The notes under the pieces: generated by a model | Told to the model about the DNA's origin: nothing | The model's database searches: none | The model's input: the letters and a program-made list of their open reading frames with translations, nothing else | Shown here: piece by piece, positions 15,118 through 34,572 of the stretch | How the letters are laid out: each line of letters begins with the position of its first letter | Position numbering within the stretch: the first letter of the stretch is position 1 | Program-made: the position numbers and the translations under genes | Source: a virus | Taxonomy: Duplodnaviria; Caudoviricetes | Length of the DNA: 64,000 nt | Direction: 5' to 3' (one strand) | Virus record (IMG/VR): IMGVR_UViG_3300025706_000001 | Location: 32,001 to 96,000 of that record

Positions 15118-16977
15118 TTACTTCGTCAGTTCCTCGCGAGCGATCCGCTTCGCTTCCTCGTAGGCCATGACCTTGCCGGGGTTCTTGCTCGCGTAGTCGG
15201 TCGCGATCTTGACGGCTCGCTGGTTGATCTTCTGGGACATCGCGTACTTCTCCGGCGATCCCAAATCTTCTTCCGTCTTCGGGGCGTCCCCGGTCGGGAT
15301 ATAGACGCTGGCCTTGGCGTGCTTCTCGGCGTAACGCTCAACGTCGGCGATGTGTTTCTCGAACTCCGCATCCGTCATGCTGCCCTTCTGGCTATACAGG
15401 CATCGTTCCAGTTCTTCACTGGCGTCGATGAACGTCGGGAAGCGGCTTTGCAAGTCCGAGATTTTGGCGCGGCGAGCGTGATTGGCGTTAACTCGCTCCA
15501 ACTGCTGAATGCGAGCGTGCATGGTGGCCATGTCCTTCAGGGCCTCGTTGTGCGAGCGCTGAAGTTGGGTGTACTTTTCGACAACGGCATTGCCTGAAGT
15601 GCTCATGGATCGTTTCTCCGGTTCGGGTTCCTCTTCGGTTGGTGCCTCACCGGACGGTTCGCCTTCCGGTCCAGGCGTGGGTTCGGGTTCTTCTCCTCCG
15701 CCAAGGTCATCGCCTTCTCCGCTTCCAAGGGCGTCCAAGTCTCCCAGGTCGTCGCCTTCGGGCGCGATTCCGAGGCCCTGGTCCATCGCTTCGTCGCCGC
15801 CCTGGTCGAGTCCGCCTTCTAGGCCCTCGTCACCTCCCAAGCCCGCGCCACCGCCCTGAATGGCCTCAATGAGTCCATCGGGCGTCTTGAATGCTTCGAG
15901 CAGCTTGGTCAGGAAGTCGAACTGGGGAGTCTGCGAGATTGCGTGAATGACCTGCTGAAGGTCTTGCGGTGCCAGCATGGGCATGGCGTTATCTCCTGTT
16001 GATTGGGTAATGGGAGTCGCCTTGCCAGCCGGCTCGGCGGCGTAACGGTCTTTGGATTTGGGCGGTGGAATCGGGGGGCCAGCGGATGCTGTTGGAATGC
16101 GAGAGGTGACATTCGATCGAGGCGATGAAACGCTGCCGATTTTCTGCTTTTGCGTTATGGCGTTGCGAGCGATGACTGGAGGCTGTTCGTCTGTTTCCTG
16201 ATGCGGATCATGCCCCCAAGCATACTTTCCTTCCGGCTGTTTTTTAGGCTTGCGCTGATCGCCAATCATCGACGGCACAAACGTGTTCCCGCCCGGCGAA
16301 GCATAGTTGCCGGCAAAGGTGTACTTCTCCACCGTGGCGTCTTGGTAGGCGAACTGAGTGAATCGCTGCGGAAGCGGAAGCCGAGGTGCCTCAGAGCCAA
16401 TGGCCGCGATTGGGTCAAAATGCGCCCGGCCATCCTTGAACGTCCAAAGCTCGACCGATCGGCGGGGCTTCTCTTCCCGAAGCGTCTTGACGTGCTCTTT
16501 CTTCTGGTACTCGTCGTGAAAGACGGCCCAGCGAGGCTTCTTGTGGCCGATCAGACCGAGCCGATAGTTCCCGGCGTACCCAAGGATCGGCGGTTCACGC
16601 TGAGTGGGGTCTTCCGGGTTCGATGTGTGACCGTCGGAAATGGCTGGGAACGCGCCCACGTCGGAAATGCGGTCGTTGTTCCCCCGAACGATCTTGGCAA
16701 GCTCTTTCAGGTCGTACTTGCGGTGCTCGCCCTTGGCGGTGGTTGTCTCGTGCTCGGAGAATACGCAGATGCCCTTGTCGAGTTCGTACCGATCGGGGTT
16801 GAACTTGCGGGCGGCCATCTTCTCAGCGTCGGTCGGCCCCCGGTACTGCCCCCACATCGACCAGACCGCTTCGTTGAACTCTTCCGGATCAACGCCCTTG
16901 GCGAACTTGGCACAGCGAACGGTGTAGCGTTCGAGTGATTCGTTCTGTTCGGGAATCGGTAACTTGATCGTTGACAT
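15118..16977 (-). CDS. Prohead protease-scaffold fusion
   Basis: Globular N-half ('ISDGHT', 'RRSVEL'), an acidic linker and a coiled-coil C-terminus. Canonical position before decoration/MCP. Confidence 0.65.
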   Translation of the reverse strand: MSTIKLPIPEQNESLERYTVRCAKFAKGVDPEEFNEAVWSMWGQYRGPTDAEKMAARKFNPDRYELDKGICVFSEHETTTAKGEHRKYDLKELAKIVRGNNDRISDVGAFPAISDGHTSNPEDPTQREPPILGYAGNYRLGLIGHKKPRWAVFHDEYQKKEHVKTLREEKPRRSVELWTFKDGRAHFDPIAAIGSEAPRLPLPQRFTQFAYQDATVEKYTFAGNYASPGGNTFVPSMIGDQRKPKKQPEGKYAWGHDPHQETDEQPPVIARNAITQKQKIGSVSSPRSNVTSRIPTASAGPPIPPPKSKDRYAAEPAGKATPITQSTGDNAMPMLAPQDLQQVIHAISQTPQFDFLTKLLEAFKTPDGLIEAIQGGGAGLGGDEGLEGGLDQGGDEAMDQGLGIAPEGDDLGDLDALGSGEGDDLGGGEEPEPTPGPEGEPSGEAPTEEEPEPEKRSMSTSGNAVVEKYTQLQRSHNEALKDMATMHARIQQLERVNANHARRAKISDLQSRFPTFIDASEELERCLYSQKGSMTDAEFEKHIADVERYAEKHAKASVYIPTGDAPKTEEDLGSPEKYAMSQKINQRAVKIATDYASKNPGKVMAYEEAKRIAREELTK

Positions 16978-16992
16978 GGAGTTACGCAAGCA

Positions 16993-18204
16993 TTAACAGA
17001 GCACCAATGAACAACTCTCGTCTTTGGGTCGGGTAGTGTCCCGGATCGTTTTTCGCGAGCCGGTCGATCCCGTTGCACGCTCGCCGTAGCCGGCCACGTT
17101 AGGCAACGCCGGGCGCACTACCGCCCGGTGCAGAATGTTCAAGGCAGCGTTGTGATCGCGGCCCAGAACAAGCCCACAACTTTGACAAGAATGAACTCGT
17201 TCGGAGAGCGACTTTGGAACCCGATCTCCGCAGCGCGAACAGTCCTGTGACGTATAACGAGCATCGACTGAGACCAACTGACCACCGGCGCATTCTGCCT
17301 TGTAAGCCAGCATAAATCGCAATCGACCCCAGGCCGCGTCGTTGATTGACTTCGACAAATGCGACCGAGTGAGGCCTTTGATGTTCAAGTCTTCGACGGC
17401 AATCAAGTTGAATCGACGTACCAAGTCCGCCGATACTTGATGCAGGTACGTGCTTCGCGTATTGCGGATTGTCTCGTGAATTCGCTGGACTTTCGCCTTG
17501 GCTTTCGTGCGGCCGTTACTGCCTTTCTGACATCGCGAGAAGGCACGGTGGGCAACTCGCAAGCACTTCTCTGCACGAGCTGTCGGTCGAACGTTCGGGA
17601 TGCTTTCACCAGTCGAAAGCGTCGCTAACGATGTCAGCCCCACATCAATGCCAACCTTTGTCACAATCGGCTTTTTTTCTGGCGATGGAACCCGCAAAAC
17701 CAGGGCAACTTCCCACTTGTTGTTCGCTTTTCGCTTGAACGAACACGACAAGATTTTTTCGTACTCGGGAAGCGGACGGTGAAGATTGACTCTCAATCCA
17801 CCGCTAATGCCTTTGACTCTCAACTGCTTGCTAGTCAAGCGAACTCCAATGAATTCATTGAAGGCAAACGTTCTAAAGCGGTGATGACTACGAAAACGAG
17901 GATATCCAGCCTTGTCATGGCGGTTGACTCGACTGAAGAATCCGGAAAATGCACGATCCAAGAGCTTTAATGTTCCTCGCTGAATACTGAGTGGAAGCGA
18001 CGCCATTTTGCTGTCATTGGATCGCAGGTAGGTTAGCCACCGGCTTTGATCGACATACGAAACGTACACGCCGTAAGTTTCGTAGGCAAAAGTTCTCCAA
18101 CTTAACGCTTCGTTGTACAGCCACCGTTGCTGGGACAGGATTGAGTCAAGCTCAGATCGCTGTTTTACGGTGGTTCGGAGTTGGTAACGGTACGTAATGA
18201 TCAT
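16993..18204 (-). CDS. tnpB: TnpB RNA-guided endonuclease, solo copy 1
   Basis: N-terminal HTH 'YRYQL', RuvC GIDVG / AVEDL / RDHNAA intact, Zn ribbon CSRCG...CQSCG. No tnpA nearby. Confidence 0.95.
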   Translation of the reverse strand: MIITYRYQLRTTVKQRSELDSILSQQRWLYNEALSWRTFAYETYGVYVSYVDQSRWLTYLRSNDSKMASLPLSIQRGTLKLLDRAFSGFFSRVNRHDKAGYPRFRSHHRFRTFAFNEFIGVRLTSKQLRVKGISGGLRVNLHRPLPEYEKILSCSFKRKANNKWEVALVLRVPSPEKKPIVTKVGIDVGLTSLATLSTGESIPNVRPTARAEKCLRVAHRAFSRCQKGSNGRTKAKAKVQRIHETIRNTRSTYLHQVSADLVRRFNLIAVEDLNIKGLTRSHLSKSINDAAWGRLRFMLAYKAECAGGQLVSVDARYTSQDCSRCGDRVPKSLSERVHSCQSCGLVLGRDHNAALNILHRAVVRPALPNVAGYGERATGSTGSRKTIRDTTRPKDESCSLVLC

Positions 18205-18303
18205 TGTTTGGGCGTCAAAAACGAAAGGTCGCCGCACGTTTTTACATGGGGCGACCTCTCGTCTATGAGTCGGTCTGTAAGTTGAATGGCAGCTTCGCGC
18301 CGC

Positions 18304-18592: not shown

Positions 18593-21500
18593 TCAATGGA
18601 CTTTTGACCTCTTGGGGGCACTATTTTTGCGTGCTACCCGTTGGGGTGGAGAAGTCACTTTGTGGTAGTAGGCGGCGTGAACGGCGCTGTAAAGCTCGAC
18701 GGCGGCGTCGTGGCGTCTGGCTGTAAACAGGGTTGGCGACTTTGCTTGTGCAGACTTTCGTTTCTGTTCCTCGGCTTTCAGTCGCTCGACCTCCTCGGTC
18801 TTTCGTCGTGCCTTATGAACAGCACCGATTACGTCATCGAGCCAGGATGTTTCGGGCTCTCCCAGCAATGATCGTCCGCCAATGTCTCGCCGTCGATCGG
18901 ACGCTGCTTTGGCGATCTCGTGGAAGAGTGTTCTAGTGGCTGGTGAGCTGAAGCCTCCAGTCTTGTTTTTGGAGGCATACATCTCTTCCAGTAGTTTTTG
19001 CGTAACTCTGTCCACCTCTTTCCCGGTCTCAAAAAGCGCCCCCTGCCTTTTCGTTGCGTCGCGAAGCTGCTCCAGACTCTTTACGCCAGGATTGTTGGCG
19101 ATAAATTCAAACGCCTTTTCTAGCGGCTCAGTGATTTGAGATCCGATGCGAATAAGGTGCGGAAGAGCGGTGCCAATCGCATTTTTCAGGCTCCGGGTCT
19201 CGGACCCCTTCTCAAGCACTTGTGGACGAATGAAGCGACTGAGAATCATGTCTTCCACAAGGTCTCGTCCCGATTCGTGTAGTTGGCCGTTCGTTCCAAA
19301 GAACTTGTGGTAGCCAGCAGTGTTTTCAAGGCGATCTCGTAACTTCTGCACAATGGGGTGATTCTTTGCTTTCAGTACCTGTCCAATCGTTGTCTCACCA
19401 GAGACTTGGCCAGCAAGGTCGTTTAGGTCATCTTGGCTCAGGACCGTTTTGCCAATGGACGCAGCCTCACGAATAGGCATCTCAGTTTGCCGTGTTTCCT
19501 TGTTGCCAATGGCGGCGAACTTAGCGAACTCGTCACTCCCAGATCGGATGCCTGGATGGACCCGAACCAAGTATGGATGCTCCATTTGTTCCATCTGCTT
19601 GATCTGTTGGTCATCGAATCCATACTGCTTAGCCTTGGCAATGACGGCATCTTTGAGCCACTTGTAGTCACCTTTTTGCGCTGCGATTAGGGCAGTGACT
19701 GCCCTTCCATTGCCGTTACTTACTTGGCCGTGTTCATCTACGGTGGATGGCCCAGCGAGCGCGTCTGGGTTGTCTGTGGTCCAGTAGGCAGAAACCTTAT
19801 CGTCGAGGTGACGTAGGACTTTCCTGTGGTTCTCGCTGCCAGGGCTGTAGTCTCGTGGCTGCGCGTCCGGGTGCTTGTACTTCGGGTTTGGTGAGATCAC
19901 TCCTTGCGCGTCGGCAATGTGCGACGGCTGTAAGTCTCCAATGTTTACGACGGCGTAATGGGCGACTACCGGATTGATTCCTTCTCCGTGGATTTGCGTG
20001 GCACCTCCGGTGACCATAGGAATCGGCTGTCCTTCAGGTGTTCCACTTGATTTCAGAGTTACTCTCGCTTGGGTTGTTTCCGTCGGAACCGATTGCGACT
20101 TCTTCTGCCTAGATCTTGGCGGGGCTTCGCCTCGCTCAATCGCCTCAGCCCGCTCCCGGCTCTGCTTTGCCCGCAATGACTTGGCGATGGCGGTGTCACG
20201 ACGTGTTTGGGCTTCTCGTTCAATGTCTTCCTGAGACTTAGTTTGCGCAGCAGTCCGTCCAGTCTTTGGCGGCTTCACTGTGGGCGTCCTGCGCTGTTCT
20301 GCCCCTGCGGACAAATCCGGGTAGTCGATCATCCCGGCCGCTCCGGGTTTCGTGCGAGTTATTCGCCCGGCGTTGTCGGCCTTAACACGCGACTGGACCA
20401 TCTCATTGCCAAGTTGGTCGGCTTCAGATGCCGTCAAGGCTCTCGGTGGGGCCGGGGGCCTTGGGCCGGCAGGCTGACGAGTCTGTTTGGGCGTCGCAAC
20501 CGCGCGGGCCGTCTTTGCCCCGCCACGACGACCGCCAACCAGACCGGATGCGATCGCGCCCAGCACGTCAGATCCGACCGAAGGTGCTTTCTGACCCGAT
20601 GGCATCTCGGTCCCGCCGTAGGTTCGGTGAGGGGATACGTCTATGGCCAAGCCGTACTTTTCCGGTCGGCCTCGTTGAGTGAACCGCTGCTTCCACTTGG
20701 CAGGCGTGAAGGTGAACCAGCGAATGGACTCCATCTGCTGCTTACCGGTTGAACGTGGCGGCATCTTGATTTTGAAGATCAGACCGTGTTTGGTGGCAAC
20801 GGCGTGGAGCTTCTTGAGTTCGTTGATGTCACTGGATTCCCCGGTGTCCAATGCCCATCGTTCATTGCCTTCAAGCGGCGGTTGTCGTGGAGGGGCAGGG
20901 TGACCTGTTGGGGAGTCAGGGATGGTTTGCAGTTGTTCGACGGGTGCGGTGAGGGCGTTCTTGCTTTCCAGTTGAAGCAATGGTCTTGGAGCGAGCTTGG
21001 CCCGCTTGGTTGCAGCCCTTTTTTCTGCAGCTTGACGTGATTTGATTTCCTTGATGGCTTTGTCTCTGGCGATTAAGTCGGCCTCAGAAAGTCGCTCAGG
21101 CTCGGCCTGCGGCTTCGGCTGCGGGAAAAGATGCGGGAACATCACTTTCATCACGTCGTCAGCGAACCTCTCGGCGGCATCGCGTAGGTCTGGGTTCTCT
21201 CGCTTCTGTCGAATCTTGGAGAACGTCGGATTTTCGCGGAGCGTATCGGTAAGCCAACGAATTTTCATTGCCACCGTTTCAGGTGTTGGTCTCCACGGAA
21301 GAGACTTGACTACATTGGACCTAAATTCATCATCTACAATTGATCTGAGTTTCTTGTTTTTGTGCCTAGACATGAACTTCAGTTGATCGCTCCCTAAGTC
21401 GGCCTGGAGTACAGAAGAGATGTCTTTTGGCTCCCAGCCGGCTAGGTGTGCTTCCATTATCCATTGGTCAGTGTCTGGCCATGTTTTCATTTCTTCGTGA

Positions 21501-24031
21501 ACCAAAAAAGACTCGCGATTCAATGCCTCCTGTTTCTGTTGGCGTCCACTTGGCTCTTCTTGCGCCAACAGAACGTCGGCTGGATCGGCTTCGCGTGAAA
21601 CAGCCTCTCGTCCTCGAATCGGCTCGTCGTCGCCAGTGTATTCTCCTATGCCTGTGTCCGAAGTTTTGTCGGTATCCCAGGGATGTCGCTCAACGTATTG
21701 TTTAACGTAGTTGTACAGGATGCCTTGGTGATGGGTTGAAAAACTTGCTGGCTTGCCGCTTTTCTTTCCAAGTTTCGTTGGATCGTAGCTGTCGGCCGCA
21801 ATCTCAAAAGTTCCAGGAAGTGGGCTGCCGTCTTCGCCTTCGCGTTTGGAGACCAGCCTGTCGATGGCATTTGTGTAGTTCGGGAACTTCTTCTTCATGT
21901 ACTCGATGCTAGGCTGGATCTTTTGCCAAAGGAATGTAGTCGCTGGCTTGTCGCCTTGACGATGTAGCCTGACGAGTTCAGCGTGCGGAATGGACTTTAG
22001 GTCACGCGGAGGCGTGAACATTTTTTGAAGCGGCGACGAAGCGGTTGCTGGTTGAGTTTGCGGATTTTCCGCTCTGGGTTTTGTGGTAACAGGTGCGAGT
22101 CCGATCGCGTCCAATGCTTTTACGTGCCAGTCTTTCCCAGGCGGCACAGATGCTGATGTAACTCCAAATGGCACATTATGCTCTGGCTTCGGAAGATCTG
22201 CGGACAGTGGGGCATCAAACAAACTCGTCTGTCCAGGGGTAGGAGCACGATCTTTTGTTTCCTTGACCTTGGTAGCGGCATACTTGTTTGCGCCGGACAA
22301 TGGATTTGGCGCAAATGTACCAGCCTTGGCCCCGGTCCCTCGTCCGTGGCGTGGCGGCCCATTCCCGACAGCGGACTGCAACTTCATCGGCTGCATCATG
22401 GTTGCGGCCGGAATGCCGTTGTTGAACCCCTCGAAGTCGATATGGTGTCCGGCCTGCTGACCTCCGTACCGCTCGACCTCGCCGTAGTAGGCTGCGGAGA
22501 ACCGTTGGAGTAGGTCGTCTACTTGGCAAATTTGGGTGTACTTCTCGACCACGGCGTCGGCGAACTGCTTGGCACTAGACGAGAGCGAGAACGGGCTGAA
22601 TCGCCGTGTTTTTGGATCGAGTTGCTGAGGTGGCGTGACGACTGGTCCCGTAGCAACCGGTAATTGAGGATAAACGGTTTCGTCTGCGCGTCCACCAATC
22701 ACTGGCTCTCTTGGCTCGGTGGGTGGTGTTGCTGTTGGCGGAGATGGCTTCAAGCCTTCCAGCTTGCCCTTTCCGACGCCTCGCTCAGGAAAAACGGCGT
22801 TGGCCAGGAATGATGCTCGCTTTCTGACGAGTTCTGGATCTACGCCGGCGCTGACGGCTCTTCTTACGCCCGTCTTCGTAGTCTTAGTGATATCCTTTGG
22901 GCCGTACATCATTTCAGACGCGAGTTCGACTAGCGGGTGATTCGCAGGGAGGTATTTCATCGCCTGACTTGTTTCTGGAGAGACCGCTTGCATCTCGACT
23001 CGCGTTCCACGACCTTGACGTGGCACGTCGGATGGGACGCCATGTTCAACATGGATGAAGCTGCCATGTTCCGGGTGATCCACATGGCTCAAGCGAAACA
23101 GTCGTCCTTCGTGCGCAAGATATTTGACAAGTTTCACGGCAGAGTCGGGTGGAAGGCCGTGAATGTCCTGGTTATGAATTCGGAACCAGTTTCCTAAGTC
23201 ATCTTGCAGTCCCTTGACGCGACGCTCGTCACTGAGTGGACGGGCCTTAGTGGTCTTGGTGACTGTTGTGGGTGCTTTCGTTGGAGGCGGAGCAATGGAT
23301 TCTCCGCCAGCAACAAGCGATTTCTGTGCAGTAGATGATGGCGTGTCTGCCGTCGTCACCGGGGCCATTTCCGGCATGTCCGGCAGTTTGTCTACCTTGA
23401 CGACGGCTGGCTCGGCTGGATTTTTGTCAAACCATGAGGTCTGGCCTTGCTGTGGTTTGCTTTTACGACTCGACTTACTGGCGTATTTTTGCTCACGCCC
23501 AGGATCGGACAGGTCGGGCAAACTGTCAAAGATCGACCTTGGCTTCTTCACGGCGTACTTGTCCATTGGTTGGGCACCTACTGCGTACTGGCTTTCGCCT
23601 GCCATCTCTGTAGCGATGGTCTCGTTTCTGGGGTCAATCTCTCTGTCCGGCGCAGGCGTCTCTGGCTTGGCCATCTCCCGTTCCCACTCTGCCTTCTGCC
23701 TATTGGACAGCATCTTGTGGCCTGTCCCCAGGTCGGTTTTGTGGGTTACGATGCCGGTGTCGTGGGCGTCTTCAAGGAACTTGGCAAGGCGGCCACCGTT
23801 GCGTCTGTGATTCAACGCGCCAAGCATGTTCACATGGTCGCCAAACAGGTACTCGATTCTTCGTCCATCAGGATACAGCATCTTGATGTACGGACGCTCT
23901 TTGCTCCCCGATGACAGGAGCTGGGGCGGCATGTCGGGGCGTTCTGGCTGCGGCTCTTCGACCTGACGGTAGCGTTCAGGTTGTCCGTAGTACGCACGAA
24001 ACACAGCGGTGCAGAAAGAACTTTTGGTCAT
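18593..24031 (-). CDS. Giant polyvalent head-associated protein A (sigma70-like domain + ddrB-like ParB domain)
   Basis: Sigma region-2-like 'ELVRL..GD..A...L...ADSYDPTK...SFSTH' plus a region-4-like HTH (~21400-22000). ddrB-ParB-like 'YAVV...DLQPSH...NP.Y...QPRD...SNGNGR...LVRV' (~19500-19970). Confidence 0.75.
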   Translation of the reverse strand: MTKSSFCTAVFRAYYGQPERYRQVEEPQPERPDMPPQLLSSGSKERPYIKMLYPDGRRIEYLFGDHVNMLGALNHRRNGGRLAKFLEDAHDTGIVTHKTDLGTGHKMLSNRQKAEWEREMAKPETPAPDREIDPRNETIATEMAGESQYAVGAQPMDKYAVKKPRSIFDSLPDLSDPGREQKYASKSSRKSKPQQGQTSWFDKNPAEPAVVKVDKLPDMPEMAPVTTADTPSSTAQKSLVAGGESIAPPPTKAPTTVTKTTKARPLSDERRVKGLQDDLGNWFRIHNQDIHGLPPDSAVKLVKYLAHEGRLFRLSHVDHPEHGSFIHVEHGVPSDVPRQGRGTRVEMQAVSPETSQAMKYLPANHPLVELASEMMYGPKDITKTTKTGVRRAVSAGVDPELVRKRASFLANAVFPERGVGKGKLEGLKPSPPTATPPTEPREPVIGGRADETVYPQLPVATGPVVTPPQQLDPKTRRFSPFSLSSSAKQFADAVVEKYTQICQVDDLLQRFSAAYYGEVERYGGQQAGHHIDFEGFNNGIPAATMMQPMKLQSAVGNGPPRHGRGTGAKAGTFAPNPLSGANKYAATKVKETKDRAPTPGQTSLFDAPLSADLPKPEHNVPFGVTSASVPPGKDWHVKALDAIGLAPVTTKPRAENPQTQPATASSPLQKMFTPPRDLKSIPHAELVRLHRQGDKPATTFLWQKIQPSIEYMKKKFPNYTNAIDRLVSKREGEDGSPLPGTFEIAADSYDPTKLGKKSGKPASFSTHHQGILYNYVKQYVERHPWDTDKTSDTGIGEYTGDDEPIRGREAVSREADPADVLLAQEEPSGRQQKQEALNRESFLVHEEMKTWPDTDQWIMEAHLAGWEPKDISSVLQADLGSDQLKFMSRHKNKKLRSIVDDEFRSNVVKSLPWRPTPETVAMKIRWLTDTLRENPTFSKIRQKRENPDLRDAAERFADDVMKVMFPHLFPQPKPQAEPERLSEADLIARDKAIKEIKSRQAAEKRAATKRAKLAPRPLLQLESKNALTAPVEQLQTIPDSPTGHPAPPRQPPLEGNERWALDTGESSDINELKKLHAVATKHGLIFKIKMPPRSTGKQQMESIRWFTFTPAKWKQRFTQRGRPEKYGLAIDVSPHRTYGGTEMPSGQKAPSVGSDVLGAIASGLVGGRRGGAKTARAVATPKQTRQPAGPRPPAPPRALTASEADQLGNEMVQSRVKADNAGRITRTKPGAAGMIDYPDLSAGAEQRRTPTVKPPKTGRTAAQTKSQEDIEREAQTRRDTAIAKSLRAKQSRERAEAIERGEAPPRSRQKKSQSVPTETTQARVTLKSSGTPEGQPIPMVTGGATQIHGEGINPVVAHYAVVNIGDLQPSHIADAQGVISPNPKYKHPDAQPRDYSPGSENHRKVLRHLDDKVSAYWTTDNPDALAGPSTVDEHGQVSNGNGRAVTALIAAQKGDYKWLKDAVIAKAKQYGFDDQQIKQMEQMEHPYLVRVHPGIRSGSDEFAKFAAIGNKETRQTEMPIREAASIGKTVLSQDDLNDLAGQVSGETTIGQVLKAKNHPIVQKLRDRLENTAGYHKFFGTNGQLHESGRDLVEDMILSRFIRPQVLEKGSETRSLKNAIGTALPHLIRIGSQITEPLEKAFEFIANNPGVKSLEQLRDATKRQGALFETGKEVDRVTQKLLEEMYASKNKTGGFSSPATRTLFHEIAKAASDRRRDIGGRSLLGEPETSWLDDVIGAVHKARRKTEEVERLKAEEQKRKSAQAKSPTLFTARRHDAAVELYSAVHAAYYHKVTSPPQRVARKNSAPKRSKVH

Positions 24032-26067: not shown

Positions 26068-27267
26068 TTAGGCTATCTCCAGTGCTTCCTGCTTCACAGA
26101 CCGCCCAACGGCAATCTCCACAGGCGTTAACCCTTGCGGATCGCTTCGGTCGGCAACCACCGCCCTAGCGTAGTTTTTAAGATTCAATGATGCGTTTACG
26201 TCTCTGTCGTGTACCGCACCACAATCGCACGTCCACTGACGAACCGATAGCGGCAACTTATCGCGTTTCAAGCCGCAAACGTTGCACGTTTTCGATGACG
26301 GAAACCATTGATCGGTAGCAACAACTGTTCCGCCACGCCACGCCGATTTATACTCGACTTGACGCCGAAATTCGCTCCATCCCGAATCGCTTATCGCCCG
26401 CGACAGATGTCGGTTTTTGAGCATCCCGGCAACGTGCAAGTCTTCAATTCCGATCAAACTGAAATTGGCCGTATAGTAATCACTTGCCTTGTGGATGAAG
26501 TCGGAGCGTTGGCAGGCGATATGGAAATGCAGCTTCGCAAGTTTGCCTGCTGACTTGCGACGGTTGTTTGATCCTTTCTGTTTGCGGGAATGACGGCGGG
26601 ACAGGCGACGCAATTTCTTCAATGAACGGCACAGTGGACGCGGCGGGTCAAGCCGAGAACCATCTGAACCAACACAGAAGTGAGATAGGCCCAAGTCGAT
26701 TCCAACCGCAGGCCCTTGGTTTTCAGGCACTACGATGTCTTCCTCGACCTGGACCGATACGAACCAGCGACCAGCACGCTGGCTGATTGTGGCGGAGTTG
26801 ATCTTGACGGTGGATGTTGGGATGTAGCCACAACGCATCAGGCGGACAAAACCAATTTTGGGAAGGCGTATGCGGTCATCACAAACAGTGACGACTTCAC
26901 CAGCAACACGATACTTCGGCGTTGACTTGTGTTTTGACTTGAACTTCGGAAAGCCGACCTTCTTACCGCTCTTGATACCTCTAAAGAAGTTCTTGAATGC
27001 CGCCTCGCAGTCTCGGATCGCTGCCTGATGCGACCACTTACTGACCGAGTTCGCCCACTCAAACTCGCCTCCAGGCCGCTTCTTCGCGTTGAACTCTGCG
27101 TCAACCTCGCGGTATGGCAGTGTCTTGCCTGTCTTTTCGTAGTGGGCGATTTTGCGTCCCAATGCGAAGTTGAAGGCAAATCGAGCCGTTCCACAATGCC
27201 GAGCCAGCGACTCCTGCTGCTCAGTTGTAGGTTGTAGCTCCGTCTTATAGGCTCGCTGGATCAACAT
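26068..27267 (-). CDS. tnpB: TnpB RNA-guided endonuclease, solo copy 2
   Basis: 'RAYKTEL.PT.EQ...ARF.FN', RuvC GIDLG / IEDL / DRDVNA intact, 'FPSSKTC..CG'. The 3' end carries omegaRNA-type CGCCTGTGGAG...GAAGCAGGAA. Confidence 0.95.
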   Translation of the reverse strand: MLIQRAYKTELQPTTEQQESLARHCGTARFAFNFALGRKIAHYEKTGKTLPYREVDAEFNAKKRPGGEFEWANSVSKWSHQAAIRDCEAAFKNFFRGIKSGKKVGFPKFKSKHKSTPKYRVAGEVVTVCDDRIRLPKIGFVRLMRCGYIPTSTVKINSATISQRAGRWFVSVQVEEDIVVPENQGPAVGIDLGLSHFCVGSDGSRLDPPRPLCRSLKKLRRLSRRHSRKQKGSNNRRKSAGKLAKLHFHIACQRSDFIHKASDYYTANFSLIGIEDLHVAGMLKNRHLSRAISDSGWSEFRRQVEYKSAWRGGTVVATDQWFPSSKTCNVCGLKRDKLPLSVRQWTCDCGAVHDRDVNASLNLKNYARAVVADRSDPQGLTPVEIAVGRSVKQEALEIA

Positions 27268-27373
27268 TGGACGCGAGTACGGAGCCCCGCCGCAGGTGTT
27301 AACAGAACGGCGGCAAGCAGCCGCAGAACTTACTGCGGGCGGGACGTGATCGAAATGTTCTGTTAACACCGTC

Positions 27374-27402
27374 ATCGTAGCATGACCTAAATCATCTGTC
27401 AA
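27374..27402 (-). promoter_or_regulatory. Sigma70-type promoter of tnpB copy 2
   Basis: TTGACA-17 nt-TACGAT with an extended TG, read on the minus strand. Confidence 0.7.
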
Positions 27403-27460: not shown

Positions 27461-30400
27461 TTAGCTTTCGTAATAAGCCGCGTAGAGATTCGCTGCAAAT
27501 TCTCGCACTGCATTGATGTTGCTGACAGACGTAGCCGCTCTTTCCAGTCCTTTGTCCGCCTTGCCGCCGATCAGTTGCTCGGCTTCGCCGCCCTGTCCCA
27601 CCGCTCCTGAATCTCGCGGTCCCGCTCGTTCTCTTGTTTCCAGGTCTTGATCGGGCATTCCTTCGACTTCTGGGTCTTCTCCAGGGCCTTCTGAATCACG
27701 TCTTCCAGCGGCAGCTTTTGCGGCATCTTCACGTTCCTTCTGGGCTTGGTAATACTTGGTCGTGCGGTGGAATTTGAGCCAATCCTTGAATGGCATGGGC
27801 TTCGTCCCGCCGACTTTCAGGAAGTCAACGTAGTCGTCGTAGGTCTTGCGTTCACCGGGGGTCGGCGGCCGGTCGATGGTCTGGGCCAGGGTCAGGCTGG
27901 CGTGCTTTTCGATGAAACGCTTGTTTTGTTCGTGCCTTGGGTGAATGTCTGAGAAGTCGTACTTGGCGGCGTACTTACTCACCTGCTCGGCGATTCGCCC
28001 CTTGTCTGGCATTTCACTGAGCCACGCCCTGAACTGTTCTGATGTCATCGCGGTCGCAGGCCCAACTCGCCAGCCTGACGTGTAGGCAGAACGGTACAGG
28101 TCAACTGCTTCCTTTTTGCTGTTGCAGCCAATGATGACCTTCCATTCGTCAAACCTTCCACTCGGTGTTTCCTGGTCGATGACCACAACCAAGTCACTGG
28201 CTGGATTTGGGCCAATGAACACGTCGGGCTTGTCTCCGTCGCGGGCATCTTCACTGGCTTGATCGCCTACACGGGAGAAATATCCGTAGTGGGCGGGCAT
28301 CTCTGGCCATGCTGGGTTTCGCTTCTTGCCCTTGGGTGTCTCGATCTTGATGGTGAGGCCCTTCCAGGCAATTGTGGGCTTGGTGTAGTTCTCGGCCTCG
28401 ATCTGCGCCTTACTGGGTTCCTTCCATCCCTTCACTGCTTCGGCAATCTCGCCAGCAGTCATGGTGTAGCGTTCGGGGGTGCCGTCTTGGGTGTAACTCC
28501 GACGCTTGTATCCCTTGGGCGGCGGCCGGTGAGCCTCGCTTCCACCCCGTTTCCTGCGGCCAAGGTCCATACCCTCGAACAGCGGCTTTTGTTGGTCTTC
28601 CTCTCGTTGGATTTGGGGAAGGCCTGTCAGTTGACGCCACTCGTAAGGTTCGTCGAGTTGCGAACGGGCAATCTGGTCTCGATTGCTGGCAATCAGGTCT
28701 TCCATGCCTTCAGAGCCGATGTCGAACGGCAATTGTAGTTTCTCGACCTCGCCCTTGACGACCGCGCCAAGTGTGGCCATCTTCCCGGCGAGCAACTTGC
28801 GACCCCAGTCGTCAATCGGCGCGTTGGAGAAGAACCATGCCAACCTAGAATTGGACTTGCTGCTAAGCCGGATGGTTCGACTGACTGCCTGTACGTTTTG
28901 GTCGGCAGCAAGTGGTCCGGTCATCATAATGACAGTTCGTGGCCGATCACCGCGCAAGTCAGGAAGATCAACTCCTGTCCCGCCTGTTCCAAGAGTGGCC
29001 AACATGACCTGATGCTTTCCTTCTTGGAATCCTCTGATCGTGTCCCGATGCGGAACGGTAGAGCCGCCATGAAGATGCGCAATGCCGGAGATTCCGGCGC
29101 GAGCAAGAGCGTCTGCCAGCATCTTGATGGTCCCTTGGCTATAGTGAACCATCTCACCTGATTCACCTGTGACTTTGGACTCGTTGATCCGGTCAGCAAA
29201 GATGACAATTTGCCGATTGGGGTCATCGGCGAGTTCGTTTTGGACGTGCTCGATGATTGCCGGAATCTTGTAGGTTTCCTGGTGACGGCGCATCGCAAGA
29301 AGGGCACGCCCCTTGGCACCGCCAGTCATGTTTTTGATGCCTAATCCGTGGCTCAGATTGTCTTCCAAGTTGGCAAGCTCGTCGTAGGCGTAGTCCGGAA
29401 GTTCAACGGTCTTGAAGTGCGCCTCGGTGCCAGTGAGGTCAATCTCGTGCTTGACCATCAAACCTTCTTTGGTCATCCGGTTGAACAGGCCGTTTAACCG
29501 GCGATGCACTTCAATGCCGCCGATCTTTGGGTCAATCTTCCATTCTGACCATTGAGCGCCTGTTTCCTTGTCGGTGTGCCGACTTTCTTTCAGGCCAAGT
29601 TCCTTGTATGTCTCTTCTGGCGGGCGATTGCCGAACACCTTGGCGCGGAACATGTGAGCAATGTGCAGGGGTTTGTCGGCTGGGGTAGCCGTCGAGTACA
29701 TGACTGAATGCGCCTTATGTGCAGCTTCGTCCATGACATTCGACCGCATGGCAGTTTCGTTTTTGCCGGAATGGGATTCGTCAAACAAGATCACCGTGTC
29801 ATTATCGACGTGTTGAAGAAGCGACGGCAGCTTGTCATAGGTCGTAATGTAGCTGTTGCCGATTTCAGGGACTACTCGCTGGCCGTCCAGGAGTTTCGGC
29901 AGCGTTCCCGGCGCATCCGCATCCATGATGCTTCCGTCTTTGTGGAATGATCCGCCGTAGGTGAACATGTCCCAATTTGCACCAATGACCTGCTTGCGGG
30001 TGACGATGATGGCCTTCATGCCTTGATCGGCCCACATTTTGGCGGCAGCCAACTGGACGCGGCTGTTGTGCGTGACGATAAAGTCGTCCATGACATAGAG
30101 TCGAGACGGATGATCTATCGTGATGCACTGGCATTGTTTTTTTGCGACAAACTCAACATTGGTGATGTAGCGGGTTGGCGGGTACTTGCTTTTCGGAACA
30201 ACGCGAGCCACTTTTCGCTGAAGCCTAAATGGGACGATGCTGGGAGGCATTGCGATATTGACGATGTAACAGAGTTGACCGTACAGTCTTTGGCCGTTGT
30301 GTTGATACTTGGGGATTTTTGTTGTATGGGTTGCGATTCCGCCAAGCGACCTGACCAGAAAAATAACGCCATCCACAAGGGATTTTGACACAGAACAGTA

Positions 30401-33400
30401 GCTCACGCAGTATCCATTGGCAGATATTGTTCCGTCTGTATCCATCAGGCCCTGAAGGACCGCCAGTCGTTTCGTTGGTGAATTAAACAGATAGTCATCT
30501 GGAATGAACTTGTCGCGGGAACGCTTCCCAATGAGACCAAATGCCCTGAGCGATGAGACGAGTGGATTTGGAGTATGGGAATTTTTGATTATTTTTGTGA
30601 AGTAATAGGCTAGACTTGCTTCACTGCTTGCTCGCTTGAGTTGCATTCCTGGCGGACAGGAGATTGCCGCAGCGTCAGCGATCTCTTTGTCTGCTGTAGT
30701 GATGGAGACTGAAGAATGAGATACTAAGCATCCATCGCCAAGCAGTAATCCCATGAGATATGGGTCGATGGGAACCGGCTTGTCTGTGAATTGCACTGGA
30801 GACACAATCGGGATTTTGTGATTAAGTCTTTGGTCCTGCTTGGTTCGCACTGATTTCATGATTTCCAACAACGGCTTAACAGAGCCTTCTTTCCCAACCT
30901 TCCTGTTGCCGACCGTTTCAGTGAACCAAAGGTGCTCGTCGCACGTTTCAGCTGTTGCGCCGTCGCTCATGGTGATGCGGTATATGTCTCGAATTCCGCG
31001 AGGGTAAACGCCAGTAACCTCCGTTGGTGTACCATCCACTGAGATGATTGCGTCACCTACTTTCACGTCGCCCATTCGCTTCCAACCGTCTGGGGTTAGT
31101 AAAAGAGAATCAAGCGGTGCAGCTTTCCCGGTCCCAGGGCCAGATGCGTCTACGAACCCCCCATGAGTACGCATTGCCGTAAACGCCTTGGCGGTGCGTT
31201 GAAGCTGGTAATCCAACTTCACTGGCGATCCTGTCGCAGGGTCGATGGTTCCAGCATCTTCATAGGTCAGATGTCGTTGTAAGACCTCTGGAACGATCGA
31301 GGTATCGGCGGGATGGGTATATTCGGGTCGGGCCGTGCGAACGGATGGAGCGATCCAAGGCCGTCCAATATCGCTTCCCCCGTCAGGTACTCCAGATCCC
31401 AATCCTCCGGATTGTCCTGCTGACTCGTCTGTGTCTGATACTGATCCAAAGTCTGGTCCGTCATCGGGTCCACTTGGTTTCTCCTTTGGTGAAGGCATGA
31501 TTTGCGAACGAGGTGAGATGCGACGGGCTTCGTGCATCTCTTCGTCCGAGAACAGTGATTGTGGCTTTGGTGCTTCTGGCGGCAGGGTCTTTTCTCTGTC
31601 CTTTGCGCGGGGAACGGAAATTGTTCCTAGCGGCGAGGCTCCCGACTTCGCCTGCGACAATGGTTTCTGTACTGGCGGCTCGTAGAGCGGCTGATCTTCT
31701 GGCCTCGATGCTCCGCTTACTGGACGATCCAAAAGAGGTGTCGATGTTTTCTGTGGCAGCGGTGCTGCGGCCCTTGGCTGACTCTGCACCGGCGCATCGA
31801 ACATCGACAACTGCTTGGCTGCGTACTGCTCTGGTCGGTCAAGCTGGTACTCCCCCTTCTGCCCTTGCAAAGGGATCTTGTGCGCCTCGTGATTCCTATT
31901 CACGAACGTCAGACTGTCCACAATGACCGATTCGCCTTCCAAGCCGTCCCATCCAATCCATCGGTCTGCTGTCCCTGGCTGAACGTCGGCAACCCGCAGA
32001 TGGGGAGCATAATTGTTTGTCGCTCTCATGCCTTCCAAGGCTCGTGACAGCTTCGCGTGCAACCGATTCAAGGCCGGTGAATGCACTTTGATCGCCACCA
32101 CGTCGAACGGTCTCGCTTCCGTGGCGTCCACGACCGTCACCTGTCCGAGTACGGCTCGGAATGGGGCTTCGTCTTGAAGCAAAGGTGCGATCTGACTCGG
32201 ATCGTCGTCGGCGAGCATCTTGATGGTGATGTGGGCGTCCTTGGTCCGGCCTTCACCATCCAGGAGGTAGTCGGGGATGTGCGCGGCGAGTTCCTGGACC
32301 TTGTTGTTGATCTCGTCGGGGAGGTCTACACGGGCCACCGCAGCACGGGCCGGTGGCAGTGGCGGGGCGACCATTGCCTGCGGTTCGTCCGATTCCATAC
32401 CGGGGCCACCGGGTTCCGGTGAACTCATCGCATCAGGGTCAACGCCGATCTTCCTGGTGAATTGGCCGGGATTGCCGGGACCGCCTCGGGGGTGCATGAT
32501 GGGGTTCCAGCTTAGGGCGGCATATTGGTCGAGATCTTGATCTAGCGCATAGTCTTCGTGCGAGACCACTTTGGCTTGGGATGCGATGTGGCCTGGAACA
32601 ACGAACTCTGCGCCCGGTGCAGCTCCAACGTTCTGTTCATAGCTGGGAAGATCTGACGAACTCACGTCCACGTAGGATAATGGCCCATTGTAGGCTTGTC
32701 TGAACGGAAGTGCGATGCCTTCTAGGGAGTTGGTGAACTGTGGATTGTGCCCAACTTCATCGGGCCTGTTTCCTCGCCACAGCCTCGTCATTCCTTCGGC
32801 TACTGGAGGAAGTGACGACTCAATCTTAGATGCCATTTTCCGAAACCGAACAATCGGAGGCTCTGAAGTTGCGTATTCATCGCGCTCCGGATACCGATCC
32901 GGCTCTGCCCCCAAATCAATCTCATCATCCGCCGAGTAGCTGGACGACCTCATGTCCAGCATGTCCGTCAATTGTGCAACGAGCATCTCGTGGTCCAGGG
33001 CGTCCCCCAACTGCTTGACCAAGTGGTGCCGGTCGGCTGTTGGGTCAAATCCTCTTGCCAAGGACTGTCGCCGCAAGGCACGGTCCAAGTCCTGCGTCCA
33101 CTCCTGGATGGTCCGCTGCTTTTGAACGTACTGATCCATGATTTCGGACAGGGTTGTGACCAGCGGATCATTCTGAACTTTTGGTCGAGGTTCAGGTTGA
33201 ACTTCTGGCTCCGGTTCAGCCTGAACTTCTGCGGGGGCAGATGCCTGCTCGTCGGGGACTTCGGGCAGCGGATCATTCTGGACTTCTGGTGACCCGCCCC
33301 TGGCCGCATTGAAGAACGATTCCCAGAAGCCGTCCCACGGGTTCGTGGCTTGACGCTGGATCTCGTAGGTTGCCTCACTAGTAGCATTCTTGGCTAGTTC

Positions 33401-33574
33401 TCCGGCCTCTATCCTGCCGTCGATGCGGTCGGTGCCTTGGGGGGATACGTCGATACGCTGCTGGTTGAACAGGTTCCGCCATTCGTCAAACGACTTGGGC
33501 GCGGCCCCAGCCTGCTGCATAAATCTCGCGTACCAGGAGTAGCGGCGTTGTTCGTCTTGGTTCAGATCAGGCAT
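27461..33574 (-). CDS. Giant polyvalent protein B (ART-like, 2H phosphoesterase, intein-split strawberry-notch-like SF2 helicase, InPase)
   Basis: LWRG/FTNS/EFVV (~32590-32790). HIT...HLR 2H motifs (~31870-32330). GPGTGK, DESH, STATP and QAVSRTIR helicase motifs. 'IETPKG...HYGY...DGDKPDVF...DEWK' InPase (~28010-28460). Start taken as ATG 33574 after AAAGGG. Confidence 0.8.
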   Translation of the reverse strand: MPDLNQDEQRRYSWYARFMQQAGAAPKSFDEWRNLFNQQRIDVSPQGTDRIDGRIEAGELAKNATSEATYEIQRQATNPWDGFWESFFNAARGGSPEVQNDPLPEVPDEQASAPAEVQAEPEPEVQPEPRPKVQNDPLVTTLSEIMDQYVQKQRTIQEWTQDLDRALRRQSLARGFDPTADRHHLVKQLGDALDHEMLVAQLTDMLDMRSSSYSADDEIDLGAEPDRYPERDEYATSEPPIVRFRKMASKIESSLPPVAEGMTRLWRGNRPDEVGHNPQFTNSLEGIALPFRQAYNGPLSYVDVSSSDLPSYEQNVGAAPGAEFVVPGHIASQAKVVSHEDYALDQDLDQYAALSWNPIMHPRGGPGNPGQFTRKIGVDPDAMSSPEPGGPGMESDEPQAMVAPPLPPARAAVARVDLPDEINNKVQELAAHIPDYLLDGEGRTKDAHITIKMLADDDPSQIAPLLQDEAPFRAVLGQVTVVDATEARPFDVVAIKVHSPALNRLHAKLSRALEGMRATNNYAPHLRVADVQPGTADRWIGWDGLEGESVIVDSLTFVNRNHEAHKIPLQGQKGEYQLDRPEQYAAKQLSMFDAPVQSQPRAAAPLPQKTSTPLLDRPVSGASRPEDQPLYEPPVQKPLSQAKSGASPLGTISVPRAKDREKTLPPEAPKPQSLFSDEEMHEARRISPRSQIMPSPKEKPSGPDDGPDFGSVSDTDESAGQSGGLGSGVPDGGSDIGRPWIAPSVRTARPEYTHPADTSIVPEVLQRHLTYEDAGTIDPATGSPVKLDYQLQRTAKAFTAMRTHGGFVDASGPGTGKAAPLDSLLLTPDGWKRMGDVKVGDAIISVDGTPTEVTGVYPRGIRDIYRITMSDGATAETCDEHLWFTETVGNRKVGKEGSVKPLLEIMKSVRTKQDQRLNHKIPIVSPVQFTDKPVPIDPYLMGLLLGDGCLVSHSSVSITTADKEIADAAAISCPPGMQLKRASSEASLAYYFTKIIKNSHTPNPLVSSLRAFGLIGKRSRDKFIPDDYLFNSPTKRLAVLQGLMDTDGTISANGYCVSYCSVSKSLVDGVIFLVRSLGGIATHTTKIPKYQHNGQRLYGQLCYIVNIAMPPSIVPFRLQRKVARVVPKSKYPPTRYITNVEFVAKKQCQCITIDHPSRLYVMDDFIVTHNSRVQLAAAKMWADQGMKAIIVTRKQVIGANWDMFTYGGSFHKDGSIMDADAPGTLPKLLDGQRVVPEIGNSYITTYDKLPSLLQHVDNDTVILFDESHSGKNETAMRSNVMDEAAHKAHSVMYSTATPADKPLHIAHMFRAKVFGNRPPEETYKELGLKESRHTDKETGAQWSEWKIDPKIGGIEVHRRLNGLFNRMTKEGLMVKHEIDLTGTEAHFKTVELPDYAYDELANLEDNLSHGLGIKNMTGGAKGRALLAMRRHQETYKIPAIIEHVQNELADDPNRQIVIFADRINESKVTGESGEMVHYSQGTIKMLADALARAGISGIAHLHGGSTVPHRDTIRGFQEGKHQVMLATLGTGGTGVDLPDLRGDRPRTVIMMTGPLAADQNVQAVSRTIRLSSKSNSRLAWFFSNAPIDDWGRKLLAGKMATLGAVVKGEVEKLQLPFDIGSEGMEDLIASNRDQIARSQLDEPYEWRQLTGLPQIQREEDQQKPLFEGMDLGRRKRGGSEAHRPPPKGYKRRSYTQDGTPERYTMTAGEIAEAVKGWKEPSKAQIEAENYTKPTIAWKGLTIKIETPKGKKRNPAWPEMPAHYGYFSRVGDQASEDARDGDKPDVFIGPNPASDLVVVIDQETPSGRFDEWKVIIGCNSKKEAVDLYRSAYTSGWRVGPATAMTSEQFRAWLSEMPDKGRIAEQVSKYAAKYDFSDIHPRHEQNKRFIEKHASLTLAQTIDRPPTPGERKTYDDYVDFLKVGGTKPMPFKDWLKFHRTTKYYQAQKEREDAAKAAAGRRDSEGPGEDPEVEGMPDQDLETRERAGPRDSGAVGQGGEAEQLIGGKADKGLERAATSVSNINAVREFAANLYAAYYES
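30065..31123 (-). mobile_element. Class 3 (Ala1, WCT) intein with LAGLIDADG endonuclease, inserted right after helicase Walker A
   Basis: Junctions GPGTGK|AAPLDS...VTHN|S. Block B 'EHLW', block F 'QCITI', block G 'THN'. LAGLIDADG motifs MGLLLGDG and QGLMDTDG. 353 aa. Confidence 0.9.
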
Positions 33575-33594
33575 TGAACTGGCCCTTTGTACGC

Positions 33595-33672
33595 TGTAAA
33601 ATGAGGCGAGCCAGGGGGCGTATGGTGCGCCCTTGCTGGCTCTTGCCACTTACACCTGAACGGAGGTTTCTC
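33595..33672 (+). promoter_or_regulatory. -10 box, hairpin and RBS upstream of the antisense HNH gene
   Basis: TAAAAT, then a GAGCCAG-GGGGCG...CGCCCTTG-CTGGCTC stem, then GGAGG 6 nt before ATG 33673. Confidence 0.55.
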
Positions 33673-34572
33673 ATGGCTAAACGCAATTCTAAATCGCCTT
33701 ACGTGCCTGCACAAGACTTGTTCGACGGCGCAAGGCTCGGCAGGTTGTTGCTGATCAAAAAAGACGTGGATGCGGCAGAAGACAGTTGGATCTGCCAGTG
33801 TGACTGCGGAACAACCAAGATCATCACGTCCTACCGGCTCATGCGCGGCGAAAAAAGTTGTGGCTGTATTAGTGGTCACGGCATGTCCCGCGATCCAATT
33901 TACAGCTGCTGGTCTGGAATCACGTATCGCGGCAAAGGCAAGTCGAAAGAGCCGTGCTATGCCAATGGTGACATCCATGTTTGCAAGCGATGGATGGAGT
34001 CGTTCGAGGCGTTTTACGAAGACATGGGCGACAAACCGAGCCCAAAGCATTCGATCGACCGAATTGTAAACGCGAAGGGGTACACCTGCGGAAAATGTGA
34101 GGAATGTCTTTCTCGCGGCGACACCGCGAATTGCCGGTGGGCCACCAAGCAGGAACAGTCCATCAATCGCTCCGTGACTCGCTTCATCACGCACGGCGGC
34201 GAAACATGCACGCTTACTGAATGGGCTCGCAGGGCAGGCATTTCGGTAACGACACTCGCTGGCAGGCTGGATCGCGGCTGGACCGTGCAAGACGCGATTA
34301 CGAAGCCGTCCAATCATGCGGGTCAATGTCGGCGAACTGGACTTCACTTGATTACCCATGACGGACAAACTCATTCGATAACAGAATGGGCAAAGATCCT
34401 TGGAATTAGTTCTGCTGCAATTTGCTCTCGGCTAAGTCTTGGCTGGTCTGAATCAAAGGCGGTCTCCACGCCCAGCAGAAGACCTAAAGTGAAAGTGTCG
34501 GCGAAAACGACTTCGCCAGAGCATAGTCCTCCAGTTGTTGCTGACTCCACTTCCCCGTCCGAAACCACGTAA
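33673..34572 (+). CDS. Free-standing HNH homing endonuclease, antisense to the operon
   Basis: 'WICQCDCG...KSCGC...HGMS...I.VC.RW..FEAF..DMG.KP....SIDRI....NCRWAT..EQ..NR' plus two C-terminal 'IT..G.T..EWA...GIS..RL..GW' repeats. Confidence 0.9.
   Translation: MAKRNSKSPYVPAQDLFDGARLGRLLLIKKDVDAAEDSWICQCDCGTTKIITSYRLMRGEKSCGCISGHGMSRDPIYSCWSGITYRGKGKSKEPCYANGDIHVCKRWMESFEAFYEDMGDKPSPKHSIDRIVNAKGYTCGKCEECLSRGDTANCRWATKQEQSINRSVTRFITHGGETCTLTEWARRAGISVTTLAGRLDRGWTVQDAITKPSNHAGQCRRTGLHLITHDGQTHSITEWAKILGISSAAICSRLSLGWSESKAVSTPSRRPKVKVSAKTTSPEHSPPVVADSTSPSETT

Follow-up and report, generated by a model that had tools for sequence, protein, structure and literature searches.

A short motif centred on tyrosine recurs in the head proteins encoded by a 64,000-nucleotide window of viral DNA, which corresponds to bases 32001-96000 of an IMG/VR virus record (128,867 bp, with direct terminal repeats and an estimated completeness of 100%). 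The enrichment of this motif in head-cargo proteins is real and specific to Tyr. In its general form, h/P-[ED]-[KRQ]-Y-[A/T/G], the motif may represent the recognition site of p623, a predicted prohead protease fused to a scaffold, which would process both its own scaffold part and a set of polyvalent cargo proteins; it is the best reading of the data, and one for which confidence and doubt are about evenly matched.

Every gene in the region of interest lies on the minus strand, as do the features described below unless another strand is given. In order of transcription, the head module encodes a Mu-type portal, a 270-amino acid (aa) open reading frame (ORF), giant B (2062 aa; 27461..33649; annotated with Pfam and PHROGs), a TnpB protein, p111 (111 aa; 25681..26016), p528 (a 528-aa cargo protein; 24083..25669), giant A (1822 aa; 18593..24061; annotated with Pfam), a second TnpB protein, p623 (623 aa; 15118..16989), a 135-aa protein and the major capsid protein (MCP). 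Both giants are located between the portal and protease genes, and the p623 gene itself is placed between those of the portal and the MCP.

Tyrosine specificity of the motif

For counting, the motif was written as the strict expression [DE][KRQED]Y[AST], which was chosen after the data had been seen; the first-pass annotation of this DNA, in which a recurrent Tyr motif had been proposed as a capsid polyprotein-processing code, used a looser definition. The motif instances listed there are all present in the proteins to which they were assigned, and the peptide AVVEKYTQ is indeed identical in p623 (468-475) and giant A (503-510), with 24 of 27 nt shared at the DNA level. The comparison of head proteins with others that the annotation had called for also agrees with its claim: the five cargo proteins (5146 aa) contain 15 motif copies vs 1.5 ± 1.1 in within-protein shuffles, and the remaining proteins of the window contain 2 vs 2.5 expected. 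Over the whole 128.9-kb genome, 16 copies are found in the head block and 3 elsewhere. With p623 excluded, the motif falls on 9 of 128 cargo Tyr, compared with 4 of the 838 Tyr in the rest of the genome (~34,000 aa; Fisher p = 4e-6).

The enrichment depends on the identity of the aromatic residue. The density of [ED][KRQ]Y is 3.69 per thousand aa in the cargo vs 0.44 outside it, an approximately eight-fold difference, whereas the Phe version, [ED][KRQ]F, is not enriched (0.78 vs 0.70 per thousand aa). The post hoc choice of the expression does not account for the effect, which is much too large for this and is replicated in homologues. A crude composition proxy for disorder does not distinguish the surroundings of motif Tyr from those of other Tyr (p = 0.29 and 0.12).

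A homologue search with p623 retrieves 87 sequences, one of which is annotated as a protein of Roseiconus lacunae (Planctomycetota); the genomic context of homologues was read from IMG/VR loci only. Together, the 87 homologues contain 277 strict motif copies, compared with 17 expected, and their consensus is V-E-[KR]-Y-[AST]. In the non-protease parts of these proteins, the profile around Tyr is marked by V at position -3 (4.1x), E at -2 (3.5x), K/R at -1 (about 4x), S/T/A at +1 and A/Q at +2. Compared with the downstream structural genes, the protease-scaffold genes of 16 related viral loci show an 11-fold enrichment per Tyr (p = 6e-14).

The predicted protease-scaffold p623

The first-pass annotation had treated p623 as a scaffold and had postulated a maturation protease. 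Structural modelling indicates that p623 is not a scaffold alone: it is a predicted N-terminal prohead protease with an assemblin/T4 gp21-like fold, fused to a scaffold. The phage-encoded protease predicted from this fold is therefore present, and it is joined to the protein of highest motif density. The AlphaFold model of residues 1-235, built with 69 homologues, has a pLDDT of 89. In a VIA-align comparison with 48,161 PDB chains, the best match is T4 gp21 (5jbl; Z 6.4, rmsd 4.4, 118 aa aligned), followed by the varicella-zoster virus protease (1vzv; Z 6.2, rmsd 3.6, 104 aa aligned), both Z values being modest, and the cytomegalovirus protease is also among the matches. Foldseek comparison with the BFVD viral models returns many entries named prohead protease, capsid maturation protease or "prohead scaffold and peptidase", with E down to 5.6e-6; the same model compared with the PDB by Foldseek gives only noise. 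H80, H121, S178 and E180 are invariant in 66 sequences and include the candidate catalytic His and Ser residues. At the sequence level, p623 has no Pfam match even at E <= 10, including the curated S77, S78/U35, Mu gpI PF10123 and DUF2213 families, no PDB profile match, and no tblastn match in 50,697 phage records.

In the full-length AlphaFold2 (AF2) model, the protease domain (1-225) is joined by a disordered linker (228-336) to a small helical domain (341-379), beyond which come an acidic disordered stretch and the coiled-coil helices of the scaffold, which are predicted at 466-516, 540-560, 579-602 and 610-622. Several motif sites are placed at borders between order and disorder. The Tyr of VEKYT at Y223 (16318..16332) is found in 87 of 88 sequences, in the final beta-strand of the protease domain, which borders on the disordered linker, so that the motif is conserved in this family where self-cleavage is expected. 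KDRYA at Y316 (16039..16053; Y in 65/88) falls within the disordered linker, where pLDDT is below 50, and its surroundings, DRYAAEPAGK, form a conserved island past a divergent stretch in L001, a relative whose protease is 86% identical. The remaining sites are associated with the scaffold helices: VEKYT at Y473 (15568..15582; Y in 78/88) occupies the first turns of helix 466-516, VERYA at Y553 (15328..15342; Y in 61/88) is within helix 540-560, and PEKYA at Y582 (15241..15255; Y in 71/88) opens helix 579-602, ~40 aa before the C-terminus. Y22, which sits in a folded helix of the model, is Tyr in 40 and Phe in 32 of the aligned homologues.

The protease-scaffold precursors of herpesviruses and the gpI/gpZ of phage Mu share a protease-linker-scaffold architecture, and the herpesvirus precursors are cut at an R and an M site. 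By analogy, Y223 is likely the junction site, corresponding to the herpesvirus R site and to the cut at 141/142 in P2 gpO, and Y582 would correspond to the M site. Nested scaffold-only products are also found in such systems, as in Mu I/Z and lambda C/Nu3. In p623, an AGGAG (15993-15997) is followed, after 8 nt, by an in-frame ATG at M336 (15982..15997), and in the related locus L005 a scaffold paralogue is encoded as a separate gene right after the protease-scaffold, starting at the point equivalent to M336; this spacing and the separate gene suggest a nested scaffold-only product from M336.

Motif copies in the cargo proteins

Giant B is a multi-enzyme protein, whose domain limits were derived from 1810 homologue hits: a mobile domain similar to ADP-ribosyltransferases (ART-like; 262-364), a 2H phosphoesterase (444-561), a SNF2-type helicase (about 835-1200) and an InPase domain (1748-1877). 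Giant A has a ddrB-type ParB domain (1366-1501; Pfam). With at least two unrelated effector domains in giant B and ddrB-ParB in giant A, encoded among virion genes, the giants fit the definition of polyvalent proteins, and the assumption that they are of the packaged-cargo kind is in agreement with their domain families, which match those of polyvalent proteins predicted to be packaged (PMC5512222). Pfam-type domain scans of the giants, p528 and p111 found no peptidase family.

About four sites per giant are conserved in homologues, either at domain borders or about 20-35 aa from the N-termini. The Tyr of these core sites is 100% conserved, and their flanks are 37-68% identical. In giant B, which was compared with the homologues P0096-P0098 and probably starts at M25 (33577), as its alignment with P0096 suggests, three sites are kept in all of them: DQYA at Y376 (32519-32533), which is at about residue 33 in P0097 and P0098, PEQYA at Y609 (31820-31834) and PERYT, within TPERYTMTA, at Y1728 (28463-28477). 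SKYA, within QVSKYAAK, at Y1893 (27968-27982) is shared by two of the three homologues. The 2H domain lies between two of these sites (376 and 609), and the InPase between the other two (1728 and 1893). The proposal that the motif brackets the domains of giant B is thus upheld around these two domains, where the copies are conserved; DEYA-259, which had been given as the upstream bracket of the ART-like domain, belongs to that domain itself. In a set of 96 homologous domains, an upstream copy occurs in 17 of 92 and represents a domain-intrinsic G-x-E-Y-x strand, and a downstream motif occurs in only 2 of 83, so that Tyr motifs on both sides were rejected as a general feature of the ART-like domain.

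The ART-like domain (~100 aa; 32558-32866) has no Pfam match; its consensus, RLWRG...TNS...G-x-EF, is of the R-S-E ART-like type, and more than 500 homologues at E <= 1e-10 are found as small stand-alone proteins or within giants of up to 6000 aa. Inserted in the helicase of giant B is an intein that carries a LAGLIDADG homing endonuclease (Hom_end_hint, LAGLIDADG_3, Hom_end; 30050-31147); P0096-P0098 are about 400-500 aa shorter than giant B and appear to have no intein.

In giant A, five site Tyr (Y31, Y508, Y532, Y594 and Y1136) are kept in all seven homologues of the comparison set (P0089-P0095). PERY at Y31 (23966-23980) stands directly past a conserved N-terminal helix, F-x-x-A-V-F-x-A-Y-Y-G. 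VEKYT at Y508 (22535-22549) and VERYG at Y532 (22463-22477) belong to a conserved double module, FADAVVEKYTQ...LLQRF-x-A-A-Y-Y-G-x-V-E-R-Y-G-G, and are followed by NKYA at Y594 (22277-22291) and by PEKYG, within RGRPEKYG, at Y1136 (20651-20665). The third cargo protein, p528, is mostly of low complexity, with proline runs and an N-terminal AYYG helix, and contains PEVYT (Y21), PPKYA (Y36), PDQYA (Y49), FEYA (Y192) and DKYA (Y434). Its N-terminal module, DLFHD-x-ARAYYG-x-x-x-E-[VL]-[YF], is kept in all eight homologues and the segment DQYAVKPMK..QPSLFNK in three (P0247, P0249 and P0250); otherwise, the family is an extreme mosaic of short modules between x-K/Q-Y-A sites. The last, p111, consists of a DUF5661 domain (Pfam), an acidic linker and a C-terminal F-A-A-S-L-Y-T-A-Y-Y tail, and it resembles the C-terminus of the giant B homologue P0096, in which DUF5661 and the AYY tail are fused to the giant; here, p111 is separate, behind a TnpB gene. 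A duplication of the tail through TnpB insertion was considered and discarded, since the tails of p111 and giant B share only the AYY codons at the DNA level. DUF5661 was likewise discarded as a hidden zincin peptidase: the first His of its HEKEH is Val in homologues, which have no conserved HExxH.

The cargo copies listed in the first-pass annotation therefore divide into a conserved core of giant-protein sites, at domain borders and near N-termini, and a second portion, roughly half, that is unconserved, intrinsic to a domain or part of another repeat. The "DYS x3" copies of p528 are of the last type, as they belong to a separate repeat, [DN]-[YF]-S-x-T-G-T-G, which occurs three times and in which Phe freely replaces Tyr. 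Y777 (PEYT), Y1420, Y808, Y1480, Y169 and Y193 were dropped as sites for weak or absent conservation, and Y777 looks like a chance occurrence.

Failures of this type could mean that no single function unites the copies, which would be a heterogeneous mixture of helix N-caps (S/T-P-E-x), structural Tyr, domain-intrinsic strands and recombined paralogous modules. The domain-intrinsic DEYA-259, the other repeat behind the DYS copies, the position of Y22 in a folded helix, the PE[KR]Y copies at helix starts, the mosaic nature of the p528 family and the lack of enrichment in the cargo of distant relatives would all be in line with this explanation, which is nevertheless rather improbable: the enrichment depends on Tyr and is limited to head-cargo proteins, and V-E-[KR]-Y-[AT] recurs at five to six non-homologous positions of one family. 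As the flanks of the copies are not homologous, the copies arose independently.

A second conserved element accompanies the Tyr sites at the ends of the cargo proteins. AYY helices at the C-termini of giant B and p111, at the N-termini of giant A and p528, and near the C-terminus of giant A are kept in all homologues. A C-terminal tail of the form F-A-x-x-L-Y-x-x-Y-Y ends giant B (NLYAAYY; 27479-27493), p111 and all giant B homologues, and giant A has, near its own end, an AYY-type tail related to that of giant B. The strongest competitor of cleavage starts from these helices: the motif and the AYY helices may constitute a docking or co-assembly signal that is not cut but attaches to the core of the scaffold, to the groove of the protease or to the inside of the capsid, similar to the cargo-loading peptides of encapsulins or the capsid-targeting sequence of T4, with the scaffold self-associating through the motif. 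The conservation of the terminal helices, the helical state of several motif copies and the fact that AVVEKYTQ opens a scaffold coiled-coil helix and has its exact copy in giant A are all expected for docking, and the strict preference for Tyr over Phe suits specific binding as well as it suits a P1 pocket. Even so, docking as the whole explanation seems unlikely, because it leaves unexplained why the best-conserved copy is exactly at the protease/linker junction and why Y316 lies in a disordered linker, and internal copies between domains are needless for loading. Docking and cleavage can both hold.

The Tyr site is often found in the middle of a composite element. Upstream of it there is a helix that ends in aromatic-aromatic-Gly (AYYG here; AFWGFG, QYWGL and KYWGL in the relative L010), and 5-30 aa past several Tyr sites a peptide of the form Q-x-S-[LM]-F-[DN] follows (QPSLFN, PRSIFD, QTSLFD and QLSMFD here; SQLMFD and SQLAFN in L010). 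These peptides occur at 59-63 of p528, at 176-180 and 621-625 of giant A, at 614-619 and 697-701 of giant B, and at ~1311 and ~2254 of the L010 giant; they resemble the consensus for binding the bacterial sliding clamp and are kept in homologues and in a distant relative. Two conserved Y-A sites of giant B are followed by a different tag, an HPR tag with HPRGGPGNPGQF at 386 and HPRHE at 1903. These tags are of the HPR-x(n)-G-x-F type, with the sequences YAALSWNPIMHPRGGPGNPGQF (386-397; ~32458-32493) and YAAKYDFSDIHPRHE (1903-1912; ~27913-27942), and P0097 carries the canonical form, HPRDPSGHF. In 157 representative proteins, the HPR tag occurs four times (n=4), a small sample for judging whether Tyr sites precede it.

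Such tags could also mean that the motif functions once the proteins have been injected or that another protease reads it, i.e., that it binds a host factor together with the Q-x-S-L-F-D or HPR tags, or that it is cut by a host protease or a peptidase encoded in the cargo. Host enzymes are used in this way by the staphylococcal phage 80alpha, in which the host protease Prp cuts at Phe|Ala. The spacing of the tags behind the Tyr sites fits this explanation, as does the proposal of embedded processing peptidases by Iyer et al. (PMC5512222). It is nonetheless very improbable: the highest motif density is that of the scaffold, a protein that is not injected, the scans of the cargo yielded no peptidase domain, and the HEKEH of DUF5661 is not a conserved HExxH.

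The Mu-type portal (34484..36532; PF06074, E 1e-30) is separated from giant B by a gap of 0.8 kb (33562-34572) with two overlapping ORFs, a minus-strand one of 270 aa and a plus-strand one of 332 aa; no Pfam family matches either of them, and the minus-strand ORF, the only one scanned against PHROGs, is without a match there too. The MCP gene (361 aa) is located at 13515..14600. Three TnpB genes (IS605 OrfB / Cas12f-like) are present, of which two are within the head-cargo block (16993..18237 and 26068..27402) and the third is at 52664-53836; in L001, a TnpB gene (178-1434 of that locus) is also placed directly upstream of the protease gene. In L005, a Mu-type portal carries an InPase domain fused to its C-terminal end (3-2282), and the next gene encodes a giant of 2258 aa with ART-PolyVal and DUF5661 domains; this fusion ties the cargo type to the capsid interior. 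DNA and protein searches of the GenBank phage collection retrieved no related record, the viral contigs yielded no relatives of giant A or giant B, and scans of genome contigs gave no match.

Proposed processing by p623 and comparison with known systems

Recognition of the motif by p623 remains the best reading because the motif is densest in the scaffold, its best copy is at the expected point of self-release and another at the end where the scaffold would be released, and the cargo copies are near N-termini or between domains, as is known for ejection proteins of T4 and giant phages (PMC10052503); in addition, the strictly aromatic residue with its small neighbour on the C-terminal side resembles a P1-P1' pair. 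In the process that can be envisaged, the procapsid would assemble and the protease would then free itself at Y223 and take the scaffold apart at Y316, Y473, Y553 and Y582, in the linker and the C-terminal part. It would trim short N-terminal targeting segments from the cargo, namely the AYYG helix ahead of PERY in giant A and its counterpart in p528, or the segment up to DQYA at about residue 33 in the giant B homologues, and would cut interdomain joints, separating 2H, helicase, InPase and tail in giant B and acting at 508/532, 594 and 1136 in giant A. The resulting units would then be ejected with the DNA.

Several results weigh against this process. In the AF2 model, Y22, Y473 and Y553 lie inside confident helices, and Y223 is in a beta-hairpin that is possibly part of the protease fold. 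The MCP has neither a propeptide nor a conserved Tyr site (its homologues begin just before a conserved NTY motif), and the single EDYA of the portal (34520-34534), 12 aa from the C-terminus, which had been counted among the sites, does not stand up: it is within chance expectation, and its conservation is unsupported in the homologue comparison. In distant relatives, no motif enrichment over the downstream genes is seen in the ORFs that lie upstream of the protease, among them giants of 1,300-3,000 aa (odds ratio 1.07). In a matched-vs-control comparison between the sites of each scaffold and those of its own cargo, only this phage and the relative L003 come out clearly positive, the others being no better than controls. 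In the giants, conservation relative to the flanks is higher for motif Tyr than for the remaining Tyr, a difference that is not significant (p = 0.11). An argument from lineage co-variation, in which ELMRYADS of the L010 clade would change together with its cargo, was dropped because ELMRYADS is the candidate catalytic-Ser strand. The even level of confidence given above reflects that several copies are helical or possibly structural and that the cargo signal is confined to close relatives.

A more elaborate version, which joins the junction elements to the protease, is tentative and somewhat less probable than site recognition as such. It states that an unclassified, assemblin-like family of protease-scaffolds may read a Tyr-small code for self-release, for the dismantling of the scaffold and for the cutting of polyvalent cargo, with a junction that would consist of an AYYG helix, the site h-E-K/R-Y|A/T and a tagged new N-terminus. 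If this is true, each released enzyme would carry its own address label (Q-x-S-L-F-D or HPR) at injection.

For the packaging and maturation of polyvalent proteins, the published proposal is self-processing by embedded peptidases. The present genome offers a concrete alternative, with a candidate protease domain (p623 1-225, Ser178), a conserved motif and a few predicted cut positions in proteins with recognisable 2H, helicase, InPase and ParB nuclease domains. If the alternative holds, it would introduce a Tyr-based specificity into the assemblin/HK97 protease superfamily and provide a sequence-based rule for the mature ends of injected effectors in a widespread group of uncultured phages.

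Prohead proteases such as those of T4 and phiKZ cut short motifs in internal head proteins: T4 gp21 cuts at L/I-x-E sites, and the herpesvirus cleavage sites are of the form (V/L)-x-A|S. Literature searches of limited coverage found no report of a prohead-protease motif centred on Tyr.

The systems of T4 (gp21) and of the giant phages phiKZ (gp175) and SPN3US (gp245) resemble the present one in that a prohead protease of the assemblin/HK97 fold acts on a short motif recurring in scaffold or core proteins and in ejected proteins, many of which have N-terminal propeptides; gp245 of SPN3US, for example, cuts AXE sites in ejection proteins and removes N-terminal propeptides (PMC10052503). The substrates of the giant-phage proteases also include the portal. 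Their sites are centred on Glu, whereas here the motif is Tyr-small and the protease has no Pfam model and is fused to the scaffold. In addition, the putative substrates here, as far as they can be read from sequence, are multi-enzyme polyvalent proteins with sites between domains. P2 gpO, Mu gpI/gpZ and the herpesvirus precursors are alike in the order protease-linker-scaffold, in a site at the end of the protease and another near the C-terminus, and in a possible nested product, although p623 has no Pfam or PDB profile similarity to them. In P2, gpO has its protease in the N-terminal and its scaffold in the C-terminal part and cleaves itself (141/142), gpN and presumably gpQ (PMC7552001).

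On the side of the cargo, the closest parallels are the polyvalent proteins described by Iyer et al. (2017) and the Dar proteins of P1 (DarB, DdrB), in which InPase, 2H, SNF2, ART-like and ddrB-ParB domains are likewise combined and encoded among head genes. The polyvalent proteins were predicted to be packaged and injected, and their processing was attributed to embedded zincin-like (MPTase) or C-terminal assemblin-like domains (PMC5512222). There, the peptidase is embedded in the polyvalent protein; here, the candidates are a separate protease-scaffold gene and a junction motif. With a separate protease-scaffold, a shared motif and cargo in which no peptidase is detectable, the arrangement would therefore represent a variant of a known principle rather than a new one.

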